A stretch of 64,000 bases of DNA, taken from an uncultured Clostridia bacterium. GTDB taxonomy: Bacteria; Bacillota; Clostridia; TANB77; CAG-508. Each line of letters begins with the position of its first letter. Position 1 is the stretch's first letter. Position numbers and translations under genes: made by a program. Positions 29,454-35,404 of this stretch are shown here, in pieces. The stretch is taken from contig CAQIBN010000008.1 of NCBI GenBank assembly GCA_948805675.1, positions 7,115 through 71,114 on the forward strand, written 5' to 3'. The notes beneath the pieces are model-generated. The model did not search any database. It worked only from the letters and a program-made list of their open reading frames with translations, and had not been told where the DNA came from.

Positions 29454-31508
29454 ATGGAACGGAATGAAATACAAGCCTTAGAGGCAAATTTTAGAGCAAG
29501 TAATTTTTTATCTGTTGCACAACTTTTTTTAAATTCTAATGTCGATATAAATAAATTAAAGCAAGAGGATTTAAAAGAAAAAGTTTTTGGACATTGGGGA
29601 TGTTGCCCTGGAATTAACTATTGTTATGCACATCTCAATAGGTTAATTAGAAAAACGAAAATAGTGCCTAATATTATTATAGGTACAGGACACAGTTCGC
29701 CTGCATTAATATCAAACCTTTATATAAATGGAAGTTTAGGAAAAATGTATCCTAGATATAAGTATGGTTTGGAAGGAATGAACAATCTTATTAGTGATTT
29801 TGGTAAGAATATGATTTTGCAAACTGAAATTTCTCCTCTATTGCCAGAGGTAATATTAGCTGGCGGAGAATTAGGAAATGCAATATCTGTTAGTATGGGA
29901 ACAGTTATCAATAATCCAAAACAAACAACTTTAACAATTGTCGGAGATGGAGAATTTGAAGCTGGAACTACACTTTCTTCTTTATTATGTAATCAGTTGA
30001 TAAATCCTAAAAATGATGGCTTCTTAGTAATTATGATAAATTTAAATGGGTATAAAATGACAAGTAGATCTTTAATAAGTCTAAATGAAGATTTTGCAGG
30101 ACTACTTGAAAGTTTTGGATATGAAGTATTTAATACCTCTATAAATAATCATGAAGAAACTGGGAGAATCTTTGACGAGATTGCAAACCGTCAAAAAGAA
30201 TGGTATGAAGGAGAAAAAACAAAGATTCCTATTGTGATACTGAAATCGCCAAAAGGATTTTCAGCTCCAGAAACGATAGACGGATTAGCGTTTGTAAATA
30301 GCCATCTGAGTCATAAAGTTTCTACACTCAAAATACCAAAAGATATTAAAAATTCTGTAGAAATTATTCAAAAATGGTTGATGAGCTATAAACCTGAATC
30401 ATTATTTGTTAATGGAGTACCGAGCAATATGGTTTTAGAAAATATTCCTAAAATCAAAAAAAATAATGTAGAAAAGAATATTAGAAATGCAAAAAGAATT
30501 AACATTAATAGTTTTCCATCAAACGAAATGAAAGCATTATCAAAATATTTTATAGAATCTACTGATGAAGATTTTTTGATTTTCAGCCCTGATGAATCTA
30601 TTTCAAATGGACTAAATGATTTTGTAAACCAATATGGGATACGATATAATGCAGAAATTAATAGTTCTATAAGGGTAAAAGAAAAAGGAAGAATTGTCGA
30701 AATTCTAAATGAAGTGATATGTATAACTATGTTATACGGATACTTGAATAGTGGAGGAGATGGAGTATTTATTACTTATGAAGCTTTTTCTCCATTAGTT
30801 TCTAGTTTCTTATCACAATGTTATAAATTTTATAAGCAACAAAAAGAAGGAAATGTAAAAGAAATACACAATTCTTTAAAAATTATTATCACTAGTTTAG
30901 GATGGAGAAATACTTACACACACCAAAATCCAGATTTATTGAATACTCTATTAAGTAAAGAATCTGAATATGTTAAAATTTATTTTCCATCAGAAGCAAA
31001 ACAAGCAATTCTTTGTTTTGAAGAGATGAAACGAGCTAAAAATTCTATACAAGTGTTATATCTTACTAAAACAGAGGTAAATACCTATAGAACAATGGAA
31101 CAAGCTAAAACAGATGTCAAAAGAGGATATTGGATTAAGAAGTTTAAGAATACAAATAGTTCTAATAAAATCTTATTAATAGCAATAGGAGATATTATAA
31201 CTAATGAATGTTTAAAAGCTTCAGAATTAATATCTGATAGAGATATTGATGTCTTAAGTATAATAAAATCAGATTGTTTACAAGAACTAAATATAGATAT
31301 AAAAAAATATCATAAAGTTCTAGTGTATTGTACTGGATATTGTGATATAATCCGAGGTGAATTATCTAAAATGTTTGATACAACAAAATGGCTATTTAAA
31401 GGTTATAACGATTCTACATATGGTACATATAAAAATGTACTTGAAAGTAATGGAATCGATATGCAAAGTATAACAAGAGATATTAAGGAGGATTATTATG
31501 AACTTTAG
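29454..31508 (+). CDS. Short, divergent phosphoketolase (XFP)-family thiamine-diphosphate enzyme
   Basis: Motifs in phosphoketolase order are FRASNFLSVAQLFL, GHWGCCPG, GTGHSSPA, GGELGNA, IVGDGEFEAGT, LNGYKM, TYEAFSPL and WRNTYTHQNPD. It is 684 aa, versus roughly 790-820 aa for canonical XFP. Confidence 0.75.
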   Translation: MERNEIQALEANFRASNFLSVAQLFLNSNVDINKLKQEDLKEKVFGHWGCCPGINYCYAHLNRLIRKTKIVPNIIIGTGHSSPALISNLYINGSLGKMYPRYKYGLEGMNNLISDFGKNMILQTEISPLLPEVILAGGELGNAISVSMGTVINNPKQTTLTIVGDGEFEAGTTLSSLLCNQLINPKNDGFLVIMINLNGYKMTSRSLISLNEDFAGLLESFGYEVFNTSINNHEETGRIFDEIANRQKEWYEGEKTKIPIVILKSPKGFSAPETIDGLAFVNSHLSHKVSTLKIPKDIKNSVEIIQKWLMSYKPESLFVNGVPSNMVLENIPKIKKNNVEKNIRNAKRININSFPSNEMKALSKYFIESTDEDFLIFSPDESISNGLNDFVNQYGIRYNAEINSSIRVKEKGRIVEILNEVICITMLYGYLNSGGDGVFITYEAFSPLVSSFLSQCYKFYKQQKEGNVKEIHNSLKIIITSLGWRNTYTHQNPDLLNTLLSKESEYVKIYFPSEAKQAILCFEEMKRAKNSIQVLYLTKTEVNTYRTMEQAKTDVKRGYWIKKFKNTNSSNKILLIAIGDIITNECLKASELISDRDIDVLSIIKSDCLQELNIDIKKYHKVLVYCTGYCDIIRGELSKMFDTTKWLFKGYNDSTYGTYKNVLESNGIDMQSITRDIKEDYYEL

Positions 31509-32367
31509 AGGAGAAAAACTATTTGATGCATCTTTTGACAAATTCGCAAAGACCTATGATGATGTTAGACCAAGGTATCCTATCCAATTGTACAAAGATA
31601 TTCAGAGATTTTGTGATATTTCATCTCAGACTAATCTACTTGAGATAGGAACAGGAAGTGGAATTGCAACAGAAGAAATTGCAAAACTAAACCCAGAAAT
31701 TATCACAGTAGAACCAGGAGAAAACTTGGTAGAAGTTGCAAAGCAGAATTTGTCAAAATATCGCAATATTCAATTTATTTGTGATACATTTGAAAATTGT
31801 GATTTTAAGGAAAGTCAATTTGATATCATTTTATCAGCGACTACTTTTCATTGGTTAGAGAAGGAGAGCAAATACTATGATTGCTATAAATATTTAAAAG
31901 ATAATGGCTTTTTGGTATTATTCTGGAATAGCTTTTGCCGTGAAAACTCGCAGATTATGAAAGAAATTGATGAAGTTTATGCTAGAAATTTATCTGAGAC
32001 ATATGAAAAAAAATCTGATGTTAACAGAGGTGTTTTAGATAAGGTAATAAAAAGAGAACAAGAATTAATTCAAAGTGAATATTTCTACATTTCAGCATTA
32101 AAGAGATACAAGACTGAATATCAATATAATGCTGATAGTTACGTAGCTTTGTTAAATACCTATCCTAAAATTATAAAGTTGGAATCAGAAGTGAGAGATA
32201 AGTTTTTAGCAGAAATAAAGGAAGTAATCGTAAAAAATGGAAACAGGATAACAATACCTATTTTAACAAGTTTATATATTTGCAGGAAAAGGGAGGAATT
32301 TACTAATGATTTAGGTTGCCAAAAAGCAAATTTATATTCTTCAGAAAAAATAGACATGAGCTTATAA
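31498..32367 (+). CDS. Class I SAM-dependent methyltransferase
   Basis: Motif I is LLEIGTGSGIAT and a post-I acidic residue is present. It overlaps the upstream gene by 11 nt. Confidence 0.85.
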   Translation: MNFRGEKLFDASFDKFAKTYDDVRPRYPIQLYKDIQRFCDISSQTNLLEIGTGSGIATEEIAKLNPEIITVEPGENLVEVAKQNLSKYRNIQFICDTFENCDFKESQFDIILSATTFHWLEKESKYYDCYKYLKDNGFLVLFWNSFCRENSQIMKEIDEVYARNLSETYEKKSDVNRGVLDKVIKREQELIQSEYFYISALKRYKTEYQYNADSYVALLNTYPKIIKLESEVRDKFLAEIKEVIVKNGNRITIPILTSLYICRKREEFTNDLGCQKANLYSSEKIDMSL

Positions 32368-32380
32368 GGAGGAATTTATT

Positions 32381-33481
32381 ATGATTAAAAACTTTGAAGA
32401 ATTGATAACTTTGTCGAAAAAATATGGAGTACCAAAAGAAGATATCTTATTTATGGATATGAATTTAAGTGGTCTCAATGCAACAGATGATTTAGATCGG
32501 GTTAGATTTGCTTTAAAATTAGATATCAATAATGAATTATTTGATTTAGCAAGTAAAAAATCAATTGAGAATTATTACTTTGCTTTACCAGTTAAATCAG
32601 AGTCTAATTATCAGGTTAATGATAATAGGTTGATGTTTAAAGATGAAATGATTGTAGGTGAAGTTGGAACATTAACAGAAGATTTCTGTGATTCTTCTTA
32701 TTCAAGAAGAGGAGGAACAGTATTAAATGTTAATCCAAATGCGCGTACTTCTTGTAGAGGGTGTAAGTTCTGTTATACAGCGTATCAAACAGCAAGGGAC
32801 AAGAAAAAGTTGACTGATAGAAAATCACTTGAAGAATTTTTTGATAAATGGTTACTCAGTCATGAACTTTCTGATTTAAGTCATATATTACAAATTGCTA
32901 TTGTAACAGGCTGTTTTGATTCAGAACAAGATGTAGTGAATTTTTTATTATTATTAAATGATGTACTTAAAAAGTATTCATTTAGAGGAGAAATATTCTA
33001 TCTTGGTTCACAAATAACTACAAGAGAATCATTAGAAAAACTTTTGCCTATAAAAAAATTTGGATATTGTATTTCTTTGGAATGCTTTGAAAATCGAGAA
33101 TATTTTTTAAGAGATAAAAAAAGAAAATTTACATTAGAAAATATAATTGATACATTAGGCACTGCTAAAGAATTGGGATTCCGAACTAATTTTACTTATA
33201 TCGTAGGATTGGAAGATTTGGAAACCATAAAGAGAAATTTTGAAAAAATGATTCATTATATTAATAGTTTCCCAATTATCAATATTTTTCAAGAGCATAA
33301 ATATCATAAAAGAATTAGGCATGAAACCGCAAATAATATGGAATATTATCTGCAAGCTAGGAAAATTATGGAGGAAATATTCTTACCGACTGAAATGAGA
33401 CCTAGACCTTGGGAAGATTATCGTTCTTTATGGTATCTAAAATTTGCAAATGAAGAATTGGATGATATTCGTACACCATAA
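32381..33481 (+). CDS. Radical-SAM-like Fe-S protein with unusual CX2CX2C spacing
   Basis: Its only Cys cluster is NARTSCRGCKFCYTAY. An AGGAGG SD is present and it starts 13 nt after the methyltransferase stop. Confidence 0.5.
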   Translation: MIKNFEELITLSKKYGVPKEDILFMDMNLSGLNATDDLDRVRFALKLDINNELFDLASKKSIENYYFALPVKSESNYQVNDNRLMFKDEMIVGEVGTLTEDFCDSSYSRRGGTVLNVNPNARTSCRGCKFCYTAYQTARDKKKLTDRKSLEEFFDKWLLSHELSDLSHILQIAIVTGCFDSEQDVVNFLLLLNDVLKKYSFRGEIFYLGSQITTRESLEKLLPIKKFGYCISLECFENREYFLRDKKRKFTLENIIDTLGTAKELGFRTNFTYIVGLEDLETIKRNFEKMIHYINSFPIINIFQEHKYHKRIRHETANNMEYYLQARKIMEEIFLPTEMRPRPWEDYRSLWYLKFANEELDDIRTP

Positions 33482-33495
33482 TAATAGTTAAAACG

Positions 33496-33540
33496 AAACA
33501 AACCTAGTATCTTAAATAAGAACTAGGTTTGTTTTGTTAT
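33496..33540 (+). terminator. Terminator of the cargo operon
   Basis: AAACAAACCTAGT...ACTAGGTTTGTTT followed by a T-rich tail. Confidence 0.8.
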
Positions 33541-33557
33541 CTATAAAAATTATAGTT

Positions 33558-33899
33558 TTACAAGTACATTTCATCTGATTTATTTTCTAATTCATATTCA
33601 ATTTGCTTTTCTGGATTAATAAAAGTATTAGTTTCTTTTTGAAAATCTCTAATAAGGTTATCTTCTTCACTAATGGCAAACTTTTTACAAACCCAATTTA
33701 TAAATTTTTCAAGAGTTTCCATAAATTTATTTATAATTTTGTTTAAATAGATATTTTCTTTTAGTAAATTATCATATTTCTTGTTAAAATTTTGTTCTAA
33801 TTCTTTAACTTTAATATTATAATCATTTTCAAGTTGCTGTGCTTGTTTATTATAATTTTTTTCTAATTTAATGTATTTGTCAAGTGAAATTTGGACCAA
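33558..33899 (-). CDS. Coiled-coil hypothetical protein, probably 5'-truncated by the IS21 end
   Basis: The frame opens with a TTG exactly at the IS21-type end repeats (GGACCA...GGACCA at 33895-33925). Confidence 0.35.
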   Translation of the reverse strand: MVQISLDKYIKLEKNYNKQAQQLENDYNIKVKELEQNFNKKYDNLLKENIYLNKIINKFMETLEKFINWVCKKFAISEEDNLIRDFQKETNTFINPEKQIEYELENKSDEMYL

Positions 33900-33945: not shown

Positions 33946-34689
33946 TTATTTATTCTCTTTCCAAAATAGAGTTTCCTCATATCGATGGCTAACATCTCTT
34001 GATATATCTAATATATGAGCCTTGTATGCTAATCTGTCAACCATAGCCCCTGTAAGCATTGCATCTTTAAATATCTCCTCCCATCTATCAAATGTTAAAT
34101 TTGTTGTTATTATTATTGAGCCTTTATCATTTCTATTTGATAATAAATTGAATAATATTTCACAACCTTCTTTATCGAATGAAACATACCCTAATTCATC
34201 TAATATTACTAAATCATATTTTTCGAATTTTCTTTTATATGCATTTAAGGCACTCCTACTTAAGGCTTCTCGTAGTTCTATTATTAAATTTGGAACAGAT
34301 ACAAATAGCACACTTTTTCCTTCTATACATGCTTTCATTCCTAATCCTATTGCATAATGTGTTTTTCCTGCTCCTGGTGTTCCAATTAGAATTATATTTT
34401 CTTTTTTGTCTATAAACTCTAATGTTTCAAGTTCATCAAATTCTTTAATAAATTCTGCCTTATACTTTTTTCTGTCAAAATCTTCTAAATATTTTTTGAT
34501 AGGGAATTTGGCATATGTTATTCGTTTTTTTACTCCATTTTCTTTCCTTTGGTTTATTTCTTTTTCTAGTAGTTCATCTAAAAATATTCCCACATCTTTT
34601 TTCGTTTGTCTTGCTTCTTTTATCTCTTCTTCGTAATTTTTAAATATATATGATAATTTTAATATTTTACTATTTTCTTTTATATTCAT
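33946..34689 (-). CDS. istB: IS21-family helper ATPase IstB
   Basis: It has Walker A GTPGAGKTH and Walker B LVILDELGY, and an ATGA overlap with the upstream istA remnant. Confidence 0.9.
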   Translation of the reverse strand: MNIKENSKILKLSYIFKNYEEEIKEARQTKKDVGIFLDELLEKEINQRKENGVKKRITYAKFPIKKYLEDFDRKKYKAEFIKEFDELETLEFIDKKENIILIGTPGAGKTHYAIGLGMKACIEGKSVLFVSVPNLIIELREALSRSALNAYKRKFEKYDLVILDELGYVSFDKEGCEILFNLLSNRNDKGSIIITTNLTFDRWEEIFKDAMLTGAMVDRLAYKAHILDISRDVSHRYEETLFWKENK

Positions 34690-35040
34690 TTATTTACCAC
34701 TCCTATCATTATTTGGTTATACATAGATGTTTGTACTCTTGTTAAATTATTTATATCTTTACTATATTTGGCAATATTAGCTAAATTTTCCGAATCACTT
34801 ATTAGTATTTTTTGAATTTCTTCAGATGATTTTTCTTTATTTTTTTCTATTATATCTATGAATTTCTTTGGATTATTGCTATAATATCTATCGTAGATGG
34901 ATTTTAGTTTTGGATTACTTTTTAAAACATATGAGTTTTTCAAAGCTCCTGGTTTGAAGGTAAGTGTTTTTAAATAATGTCTAATATCGGCACTTATCTT
35001 CTTAGTTCCATCTACTTTTTTATGCTCACATACAAATTCA
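34686..35040 (-). pseudogene. istA: IS21-family transposase IstA, C-terminal fragment only
   Basis: The fragment reads ...EFVCEHKKVDGTKKISADIRHYLKTLTFKPGALKNSYVLKSNPKLKSIYDRYY.... No catalytic DDE part lies upstream. Confidence 0.65.
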
Positions 35041-35404
35041 TTATTTGAGTAAATTAAAATCTTGTTGTAATATATTCTTTAAAAATTTCTTTTCTTTCTC
35101 AATAAAATTAGCTAATTTTATATCATTTCCTATTTTTACATTTGTTCCTTTTGCTGTTTCATTCTCTTCATTTCTTCTTTGTGCTACTTCTGCACAATAC
35201 TTCCATATTGGTAAGTATGAAGTTTCTAATTCTATTAGTCCTAATTTTATTTCTCTACTTATTGTTGTTCTATGCTTTCCTAATATTTCACCTATTTGCG
35301 TATAATTTAAATGTTGATCATTATACAATGTTTCAATTTTTATTTTCTTTATACGTTAGTTGTTTAAATTCTCTTTTATTTGTGATATACTTTTCTTGAC
35401 ACAT
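35041..35404 (-). pseudogene. IS30-family transposase, N-terminal HTH fragment with a frameshift
   Basis: GGAGG is followed by MCQEKYITNKREFKQLTYKENKN*. The +1 frame then gives IETLYNDQHLNYTQIGEILGKHRTTISREIKLG...AEVAQRRNEE. The shift lies in an A5 run and the gene is truncated at about 35041. Confidence 0.6.

Follow-up and report, generated by a model that had tools for sequence, protein, structure and literature searches.

A conserved operon joining a phosphoketolase-subfamily enzyme, a methyltransferase and a radical-SAM-fold protein is a candidate core for small-molecule biosynthesis

Thiamine pyrophosphate (TPP) enzymes and other C2–C3 donors supply precursors in several natural-product pathways, among them fosfomycin (Fom1-3), polyoxin/nikkomycin (PolA-PolH-PolJ-PolK) and quinocarcin, in which a TPP-dependent step transfers a C2 unit to an acyl carrier protein (ACP). 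The logic of such pathways runs from a precursor made by a TPP enzyme or transferase, through a radical S-adenosylmethionine (SAM) step, often on a nucleotide-activated or phosphorylated intermediate, to a phosphatase, dioxygenase or methyltransferase. Here we analyze an operon in 64,000 nucleotides of DNA from an uncultured Clostridia bacterium (contig CAQIBN010000008.1, positions 7,115 to 71,114; this whole stretch is called the window) that encodes a phosphoketolase-subfamily TPP enzyme (X), a class I SAM methyltransferase (M) and a radical-SAM-fold protein (R). Its likeness to those pathways is one of analogy only, as there is no orthology and no phosphoenolpyruvate (PEP) mutase, enolpyruvyl transferase or B12 domain. 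An earlier reading of this DNA (hereafter the original prediction) knew of no described pathway linking the three enzyme types; our full-text literature search agrees, having found no description of a phosphoketolase/radical-SAM association, including in connection with Patescibacteria, biosynthetic clusters, creatininase and pCPF5603. We consider it probable, if well short of certain, that the trio is the smallest core of an uncharacterized cluster for small-molecule biosynthesis, one that is widespread and passes between hosts by horizontal transfer.

The three genes lie on the forward strand of the window. X (684 residues, 29454-31508) was assigned by Pfam, NCBIfam and residue mapping, M (289 residues, HvrF/Tam/CmoM-like, 31498-32367) by Pfam and profile search, and R (366 residues, 32381-33481) by alignment, an AF2 model and Foldseek. 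The X and M genes share 11 nt and a gap of 13 nt separates M from R, exactly the tight coupling first claimed, and a GGAGG-type ribosome-binding site precedes each gene. A bidirectional intrinsic terminator hairpin with a U-rich tail follows R at 33492-33538; a simple scan missed it, but its fold energy stood out against shuffled sequences (-25.5 kcal/mol, z = -7.78, with 0 of 200 shuffles equally stable), in keeping with the strong terminator described earlier. X-M-R is one intact, coupled and terminated operon. Ratios of nonsynonymous to synonymous substitution rates (dN/dS) against orthologues at 77-88% identity were 0.19 for X, 0.07 for M and 0.07-0.09 for R, and purifying selection acts on all three.

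Compared with the phosphoketolases of the XFP family (Bifidobacterium longum and B. breve PK, PDB 3AI7/3AHC), X has the same fold and domain order (XFP_N, XFP) and retains the GDGE...NGYK TPP/Mg motif and the catalytic residues. Pfam matches were strong for XFP_N (4.8e-74, 249.8 bits against a cutoff of 23.7) and XFP (2.6e-35, 122.2 bits, cutoff 22), and XFP_C aligned over profile positions 1-59 of 202 only, at 21.7 bits against a cutoff of 23.4. The whole motif series quoted in the original prediction is present: GHWG at residues 46-49, GGELG at 137-141, GDGE at 164-167, NGYK at 198-201, YEAF at 442-445 and HQNPD at 490-494. X was also correctly described as short and divergent. Its 684 residues compare with 770-825 in canonical XFP, some 100-140 fewer; the linker is reduced, the C-terminal domain is both shorter and divergent, and the best NCBIfam phosphoketolase score was 416.7 bits against a cutoff of 777 (269 against 1518 for the equivalog model).

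We mapped X onto B. longum PK numbering using a published list of pocket and catalytic residues (PMC10547157) and compared it with 39 relatives, 40 sequences in all. The catalytic residues H64, H97, H320, E479, Y501, N549, H553 and K605 are kept throughout, and S440, E437 and the TPP/Mg ligands D182, N215 and G155 are kept in X. Three changes are invariant across the subfamily, namely H142E, Q321K and deletion of Q546-D547-H548, whereas canonical XFPs retain H142, Q321 and the QDH triplet. Position 442, an Arg in B. longum, is Gly in most members, and further differences from canonical XFP lie at H152 (L, Y or N) and E153 (A). The subfamily comprises the window clade, a clade at about 42% identity from the candidate phyla radiation (CPR), proteins from Rickettsiales-like metagenome-assembled genomes (MAGs), and actinomycete and Clostridium perfringens proteins. 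The closest solved structure to X is 9CD3, an engineered phosphoketolase in which H132S, a change at the position of H142, came out of selection for activity toward the small unphosphorylated substrate glycolaldehyde (PMC11326285). This is consistent with a role of H142 in recognizing the substrate tail rather than in the chemistry, and we infer that the reaction of X is still of the phosphoketolase type but that its substrate is another one. A truncated xfp relic with disrupted TPP or catalytic residues, which had been raised as a possibility, is ruled out by the intact residues and the dN/dS of about 0.19.

R scored 24.9 bits against Pfam Radical_SAM (PF04055), under the cutoff of 29.5, and a profile search of PDB sequences gave no match. 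The AF2 model of R (predicted local distance difference test score 90.6) yielded 39 Foldseek matches in the PDB at E <= 1e-3, essentially all of them radical-SAM enzymes, headed by LipA (E = 3.7e-8, Foldseek probability 1.0), BioB, HydE, SuiB and MiaB, with TM-scores of about 0.45. By this model R has a genuine radical-SAM fold, with a partial TIM barrel. Like LipA, BioB and HydE it shows a matching barrel core, a cluster loop after beta-1 and an aromatic residue before the last cysteine, and it carries YIVGLE, which resembles GxIxGxxE; unlike them it has CX2CX2C instead of CX3CX2C and lacks a conserved auxiliary-cluster cysteine triad. The motif C125-X2-C128-X2-C131 is invariant in the family alignment and lies in the customary place, the loop after beta-1. 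Among distant relatives both CX3CX2C and CX2CX2C occur, which implies that the short loop is a variant of the normal cluster site. C103 and D104 are invariant in the core family, and an N-terminal domain of about 100 residues is unique to it. We found no support for an auxiliary Fe-S cluster of the LipA/BioB sulfur-insertase type, as conservation of C103, C178 and C230 breaks down in distant members, among them those of Nocardia, L019 and L047. The family is rare: an exhaustive search of 1.84 billion representatives recovered 332 clusters of R at 50% identity, some of whose members are fused to a GrpB nucleotidyltransferase-fold domain; two distant relatives, L059 and L060, lie on short contigs.

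M matched Methyltransf_11 (58.1 bits) and Methyltransf_25 (55.1 bits), and its SAM-binding GxGxG motif, EIGTGSG, is invariant. With a profile built from 18 orthologues and run against PDB sequences, the best solved relative was HvrF of the pantaphos cluster, which makes a phosphonate (9e72), at 1.1e-19 over the full length, followed by CmoM (3.9e-12), trans-aconitate methyltransferase (Tmt1), BioC and juvenile-hormone acid methyltransferase (JHAMT). HvrF is needed for production of this toxin and is a predicted carboxyl O-methyltransferase (bioRxiv 10.1101/2022.11.22.517531). Its function is thus itself a prediction, and its likeness to M is at family level only (profile E = 1e-19). Besides HvrF, the closest solved relatives (trans-aconitate methyltransferase, CmoM and BioC) include known carboxyl O-methyltransferases, a hint that M may form a methyl ester. 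R and M are acidic, with isoelectric points of about 5-6.8 (about 5 for the N-terminal domain of R), which makes them unlike typical nucleic-acid enzymes.

A neighborhood census disposes of the idea that the trio never co-occurs elsewhere. Identical X-M-R order and spacing appear in further MAGs of Clostridia, where the chromosomal surroundings are of at least four kinds: between recA and prs/ftsY, beside Sua5 and beta-CASP genes, beside a serine recombinase, beside an XRE fragment, and beside an integrase fragment. These loci usually lie just downstream of tRNA genes, directly so in L001, L002 and L021, and L021 carries a fragment of the window's XRE protein upstream of the trio. The link between X, R and a methyltransferase also reaches CPR genomes, Rickettsiales-like MAGs, Actinomycetota plasmids and C. 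perfringens plasmids. In Nealsonbacteria-type CPR and a Rickettsiales-like MAG, R comes first, then X, and after them a methyltransferase gene in convergent orientation and the gene for a protein of about 150 residues. The family's center of gravity is in CPR, DPANN and Actinomycetota, not in Firmicutes.

A scan at species level found 36 loci among 185,579 species representatives, 35 of them with a recognizable R. X adjoins R in six of the 35, and in 24, from CPR and DPANN, the place of X is taken by a split alpha/beta TPP enzyme related to the family of phosphonopyruvate decarboxylase (Ppd) and sulfopyruvate decarboxylase (ComDE), in the order TPP enzyme, methyltransferase, R; the remainder are short contigs or solo R genes. 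The split enzyme falls below all the Ppd/ComDE family cutoffs (114 against 148, 139 against 221 and 152 against 312), and it is absent from the window. The methyltransferase of these operons (type-2 operons) is orthologous to M and 42% identical to it. Its gene overlaps that of the TPP beta subunit by 4 nt in other loci than L038, where a single 474-residue open reading frame (ORF; 6565-7989) joins the two and could be a true fusion or a sequencing error. X always adjoins R, and every locus with the X subfamily signature carries R, whereas R was absent within 8 kb of canonical xfp at all 80 metagenomic loci. Those 80 came from a metagenome scan with the X alignment, whose pattern is common to all XFPs and which returned no member of the subfamily. 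Because either X or the split enzyme stands beside the same M and R, and R is absent from canonical xfp, the conserved unit consists of R, a methyltransferase and a TPP enzyme, the last being subject to non-orthologous replacement. This swap suggests that X and the split enzyme supply the same TPP-derived C2, acyl or aldehyde unit.

Several smaller observations concern these loci. In several sister Clostridia MAGs R is split or truncated with X and M intact (L046 1500-2415, L022 3257-3952 and L002 6093-7058). The protein of about 150 residues beside R in CPR and DPANN (L004 9079-9537, L031 262-708, L047 7496-7948) has a conserved DGA...GSGYNSA-like motif; Pfam gave no match for the L004 and L031 proteins, and the archaeal L047 protein showed a weak match, below cutoff (E = 8.8e-5), to the DAC (DisA_N) diadenylate-cyclase fold. 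Next to R-X in CPR lie a 437-residue protein with weak HhH-GPD and P-loop (thymidylate-kinase-like) matches, beside a MazG-like gene (L009 2990-4303), and a 418-residue protein (L004 11882-13138). A Mom identity for the latter was set aside, the match being weak and non-significant. These two neighbors hint at DNA-base chemistry.

Much larger clusters surround the same core on plasmids. A tblastn search with R hit 39 plasmid records, 30 of them 70-75 kb tcp-conjugative plasmids of C. perfringens; one of 75.3 kb, of pCPF5603 type, carries cpe and cpb2. The C. perfringens cluster spans about 20 kb (L141/L144; NZ_CP075954.1, pCP721-84_1, about 43-64 kb) and places R, an X with the same QDH deletion and a methyltransferase among PHP phosphoesterases, two ACPs, ABC-2 transporters, a BtrH-N acyltransferase-like protein, adenylate-forming enzymes and a HAD protein. 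Plasmids of Nocardia farcinica (pNF1), Streptomyces and Mycobacterium intracellulare share R, an enolase-superfamily protein, a HAD protein, X and a methyltransferase, with variable additions that include GGDEF, PhyH, creatininase-family, Sua5/YciO and NUDIX proteins, an MFS exporter, two further radical-SAM proteins, pyrF and a nucleoside hydrolase. An adenylation-domain (A-domain) gene also occurs in the larger clusters. The actinomycete gene set recurs in metagenomic L058 and L056/57, the latter flanked by integrases and PrimPol. One accessory radical-SAM protein is 41% identical between pNF1 and a Nealsonbacteria locus, which indicates that the extended cluster itself has moved across phyla. 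Domains that use NTPs or handle phosphoesters recur (GGDEF, DAC-like, GrpB, Sua5, NUDIX, PHP, HAD) and suggest, indirectly, that intermediates may be phosphorylated or nucleotide-activated. PEP mutase was not found among the called or annotated neighbors in L001-L019, L056-L058 and L141-L146 (L020-L055 were clustered only, and whole genomes were not searched), and the annotated flanks hold no coenzyme M genes. An HTH and DUF397 regulator pair lies upstream of the cluster in L143 (a Streptomyces avidinii plasmid) and L142 (pNF1); a type I-U CRISPR-Cas system adjoins it in the former (178-5069) and a giant helicase-related protein in the latter (21985-25062).

We favor a small-molecule product because the larger clusters hold exporters, carrier proteins and adenylating enzymes, and because R and M are acidic, defense models gave no matches and R is absent from viral contigs. 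In the pathway we propose, X would bind TPP and Mg2+ and, retaining all that a phosphoketolase uses to form the ylide, dehydrate and carry out phosphorolysis, would act on a keto substrate that probably differs from xylulose-5-phosphate and fructose-6-phosphate, as the residues recognizing their tail are missing. The resulting TPP-bound C2 or acyl unit would be released as an acyl phosphate or aldehyde, and at most CPR/DPANN loci the split Ppd/sulfopyruvate-decarboxylase-like enzyme would do the equivalent job from a 2-oxo acid. R may then carry out a radical step on this product or couple it to a second substrate, and M would methylate the outcome, probably to a methyl ester. The phosphatases, enolase-superfamily enzyme, NTP-using domains, carriers and exporters of the larger clusters point to an exported metabolite whose intermediates are possibly phosphorylated or nucleotide-activated. 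We infer the step order, the substrate class and methyl-ester formation from family relationships and gene content.

Several points weigh against this proposal. No member of the family has an assigned product, substrate or activity. R departs from the canonical CX3CX2C motif and scores below the Pfam cutoff, so SAM cleavage is a prediction, and M resembles carboxyl O-methyltransferases no more closely than at family level. M, a type 1 methyltransferase, shares only about 24% identity with the type-2 enzyme found in the Nealsonbacteria, Actinomycetota and L056/L058 clusters, and the C. perfringens methyltransferase matches type 1 weakly (29% over 124 residues). The window trio has no exporter, carrier protein or phosphatase, and its product may be simpler than, or unlike, that of the large clusters. 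The disrupted R genes of L046, L022 and L002 would represent assembly errors or ongoing loss, the latter marking a dispensable trait.

The original prediction had left three functions open. Small-molecule chemistry gains from the exporters, carriers and adenylating enzymes; nucleotide or sugar-phosphate modification comes in through accessory genes only; and defense found no positive support. An anti-phage or anti-mobile-element module, making a modified nucleotide or another antiviral small molecule as prokaryotic viperins do, under XRE control on an element resembling a defense island, would suit the integrative-element cargo of the window and L056/57 (integrases, PrimPol), the S. avidinii type I-U CRISPR-Cas neighbor and the giant helicase-related protein and AAA ATPase near the pNF1 cluster, as well as the recurring GGDEF, DAC-like, NUDIX, Sua5, pyrF and nucleoside hydrolase genes and the patchy distribution driven by horizontal transfer. 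We nevertheless consider it unlikely: PADLOC 2.0 gave no match for X or R, matching M only as the generic methyltransferase part of mad2 and, among the extended-cluster proteins, only the accessory radical-SAM protein through a generic pVip N-terminal match. A search of IMG/VR found no homologue of R, the operon sits among housekeeping genes in most CPR genomes, and secondary metabolism is where genes for exporters, ACP, A-domain and BtrH-like proteins typically occur. Those exporters and carrier proteins also misfit an Elp3/Trm9-like modification of macromolecules, in which R would carboxymethylate a nucleobase or protein residue with an acetyl unit from the TPP enzyme, acetyl-TPP or acetyl-phosphate standing in for acetyl-CoA, and M would make the methyl ester. 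In favor of this, CPR and DPANN organisms, which host the module, are generally poor in coenzyme A metabolism. X keeps the residues that form acetyl-TPP and acetyl-phosphate, M resembles CmoM, the tRNA cmo5U34 carboxyl methyltransferase (3.9e-12), some CPR operons lie among translation genes, and the L009 neighbor looks like an HhH-GPD/P-loop kinase fusion beside a MazG-like gene. Against these stand the acidity of R and M, down to the R N-terminal domain, the lack of a recognizable RNA- or DNA-binding domain in R, and a module that is rare (36 of 185,579 species representatives), mobile and sometimes disrupted, unlike core modification; we rate this explanation as improbable.

Much the same doubt attaches to salvage or catabolism in host-dependent organisms, whereby X would cut an unusual or unphosphorylated keto-sugar to acetyl-phosphate as a source of ATP. 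The sugar might derive from 5'-deoxyadenosine or methylthioadenosine, both by-products of SAM, or the substrate might be a metabolite of the host. Two enzymes that consume SAM, a methyltransferase and a radical-SAM protein, would be an expensive and uncommon feature of catabolism, the loci examined hold no genes for acetate kinase, phosphotransacetylase or sugar handling, and the large clusters look biosynthetic. These points outweigh, in our judgment, the enrichment of the module among symbionts with reduced genomes (CPR, DPANN, Rickettsiales-like MAGs and low-GC gut Clostridia) and the loss of the distal phosphate-binding residues of XFP with retention of those forming acetyl-phosphate. Least credible is incidental adjacency, with X an ordinary short phosphoketolase or relic and M and R unrelated neighbors. 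X is clearly a phosphoketolase homologue and the island is decaying (integrase pseudogene, fragmented IS21); yet X and R stay adjacent in different phyla and in both domains represented, even where identity has fallen to about 25-30%, R is missing from the 80 canonical xfp loci, the pocket signature is specific to the subfamily, and all three genes are under purifying selection and overlap or lie 13 nt apart. Incidental adjacency or a relic is effectively excluded.

Returning to a biosynthetic core, a more specific version is tentative and rather less likely to be right than wrong: X and R may represent new enzymology in which acyl-TPP or acyl-phosphate is passed to a CX2CX2C radical-SAM enzyme, making a nucleotide-linked or phosphorus-containing exported metabolite by a pathway exchanged between domains, among CPR bacteria, DPANN archaea, gut Clostridia, actinomycete plasmids and C. 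perfringens enterotoxin plasmids. In that version the metabolite could be an antimetabolite, toxin or signal, and cpe plasmids would endow a major pathogen with a chemical trait so far unrecognized. The more extreme idea that radical chemistry, independent of PEP mutase, leads to a C-P compound seems to us far-fetched. The component superfamilies are already known; what appear to be new are the XFP subfamily signature, the R family with CX2CX2C, the non-orthologous TPP replacement and the cross-domain spread that takes in pathogen toxin plasmids. If the biosynthetic proposal is right, a whole subfamily now annotated "phosphoketolase" would have to be reclassified as biosynthetic and as acting on another substrate. 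R defines a radical-SAM family whose cluster motif is non-canonical and of which no relative has been solved or characterized, and two unrelated TPP enzymes seemingly serve one pathway. The module gives a first point of entry to an accessory pathway of a kind that few others represent, being common to CPR bacteria and DPANN archaea. The C. perfringens and Nocardia farcinica carriers can be cultured, so the product is open to direct experimental search; it could bear on gut competition or virulence.

Upstream of X, the divergent XRE-family HTH regulator reported earlier is present (82 residues, 28957-29205, reverse strand; Pfam HTH_3, 3.7e-10). The "good extended -10 promoter" fares less well. 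A sigma-70 site with an extended -10 (TTGAAA-17-TGgTAAAAT, 29308-29336, forward strand) does match the consensus at 10 of 12 positions plus the TG extension, but we call it only a candidate because promoter-like sites are no commoner than chance in this AT-rich stretch, with 37 found against 35.5 expected and no enrichment over shuffled sequence. The operon leader contains no riboswitch in the window or in nine related loci. Facing R across the terminator, which the two share, is a convergent, coiled-coil-like ORF of 113 residues (33558-33899, reverse strand); its sole match, to Dam, was sub-threshold (E = 0.004) and was treated as non-significant. The window as a whole has a GC content of about 26%, and its nearest genome matches are uncultured gut Clostridia MAGs.

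The surroundings of the trio agree with its earlier description as mobile-element cargo. A tRNA-Leu(UAA) gene at 25345-25432 (forward strand; ARAGORN, Rfam tRNA 59 bits) is the probable island integration site. The tyrosine integrase beside it (25592-26823, reverse strand) is a recent pseudogene, with a frameshift near 26270 and an in-frame stop near 25940; its N-terminal 183 residues match Phage_int_SAM_5 and Phage_int_SAM_3, and the catalytic part remains readable in another frame, retaining RRSE, HDLRHS and IYTH motifs. An excisionase-like HTH_17 protein follows (26862-27068, reverse strand; Pfam HTH_17, 7e-9), and the island also holds XRE fragments. In its right-hand part lies an IS21-family remnant (33946-35328, reverse strand) with an intact IstB (247 residues; IstB_IS21, 1.1e-60) and an upstream IstA broken into small ORFs, one of them an HTH_38 fragment. 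No flanking direct repeat of the tRNA 3' end (attR) was found within the window. We read the trio as probable cargo of an integrative element, now decayed, beside tRNA-Leu. Between nucleotides 35929 and 36018 lies a hairpin of about 90 nt, between the IS21 remnant and an HU gene; it matched several plant and animal miRNA-precursor models below threshold and by shape alone, and may be the right island end or a terminator. Just beyond HU and a MurJ/Polysacc_synt flippase, a 793-residue protein with TraG-D_C and TrwB type IV coupling-protein domains (38427-40808, forward strand) suggests a second mobile or conjugative remnant nearby.

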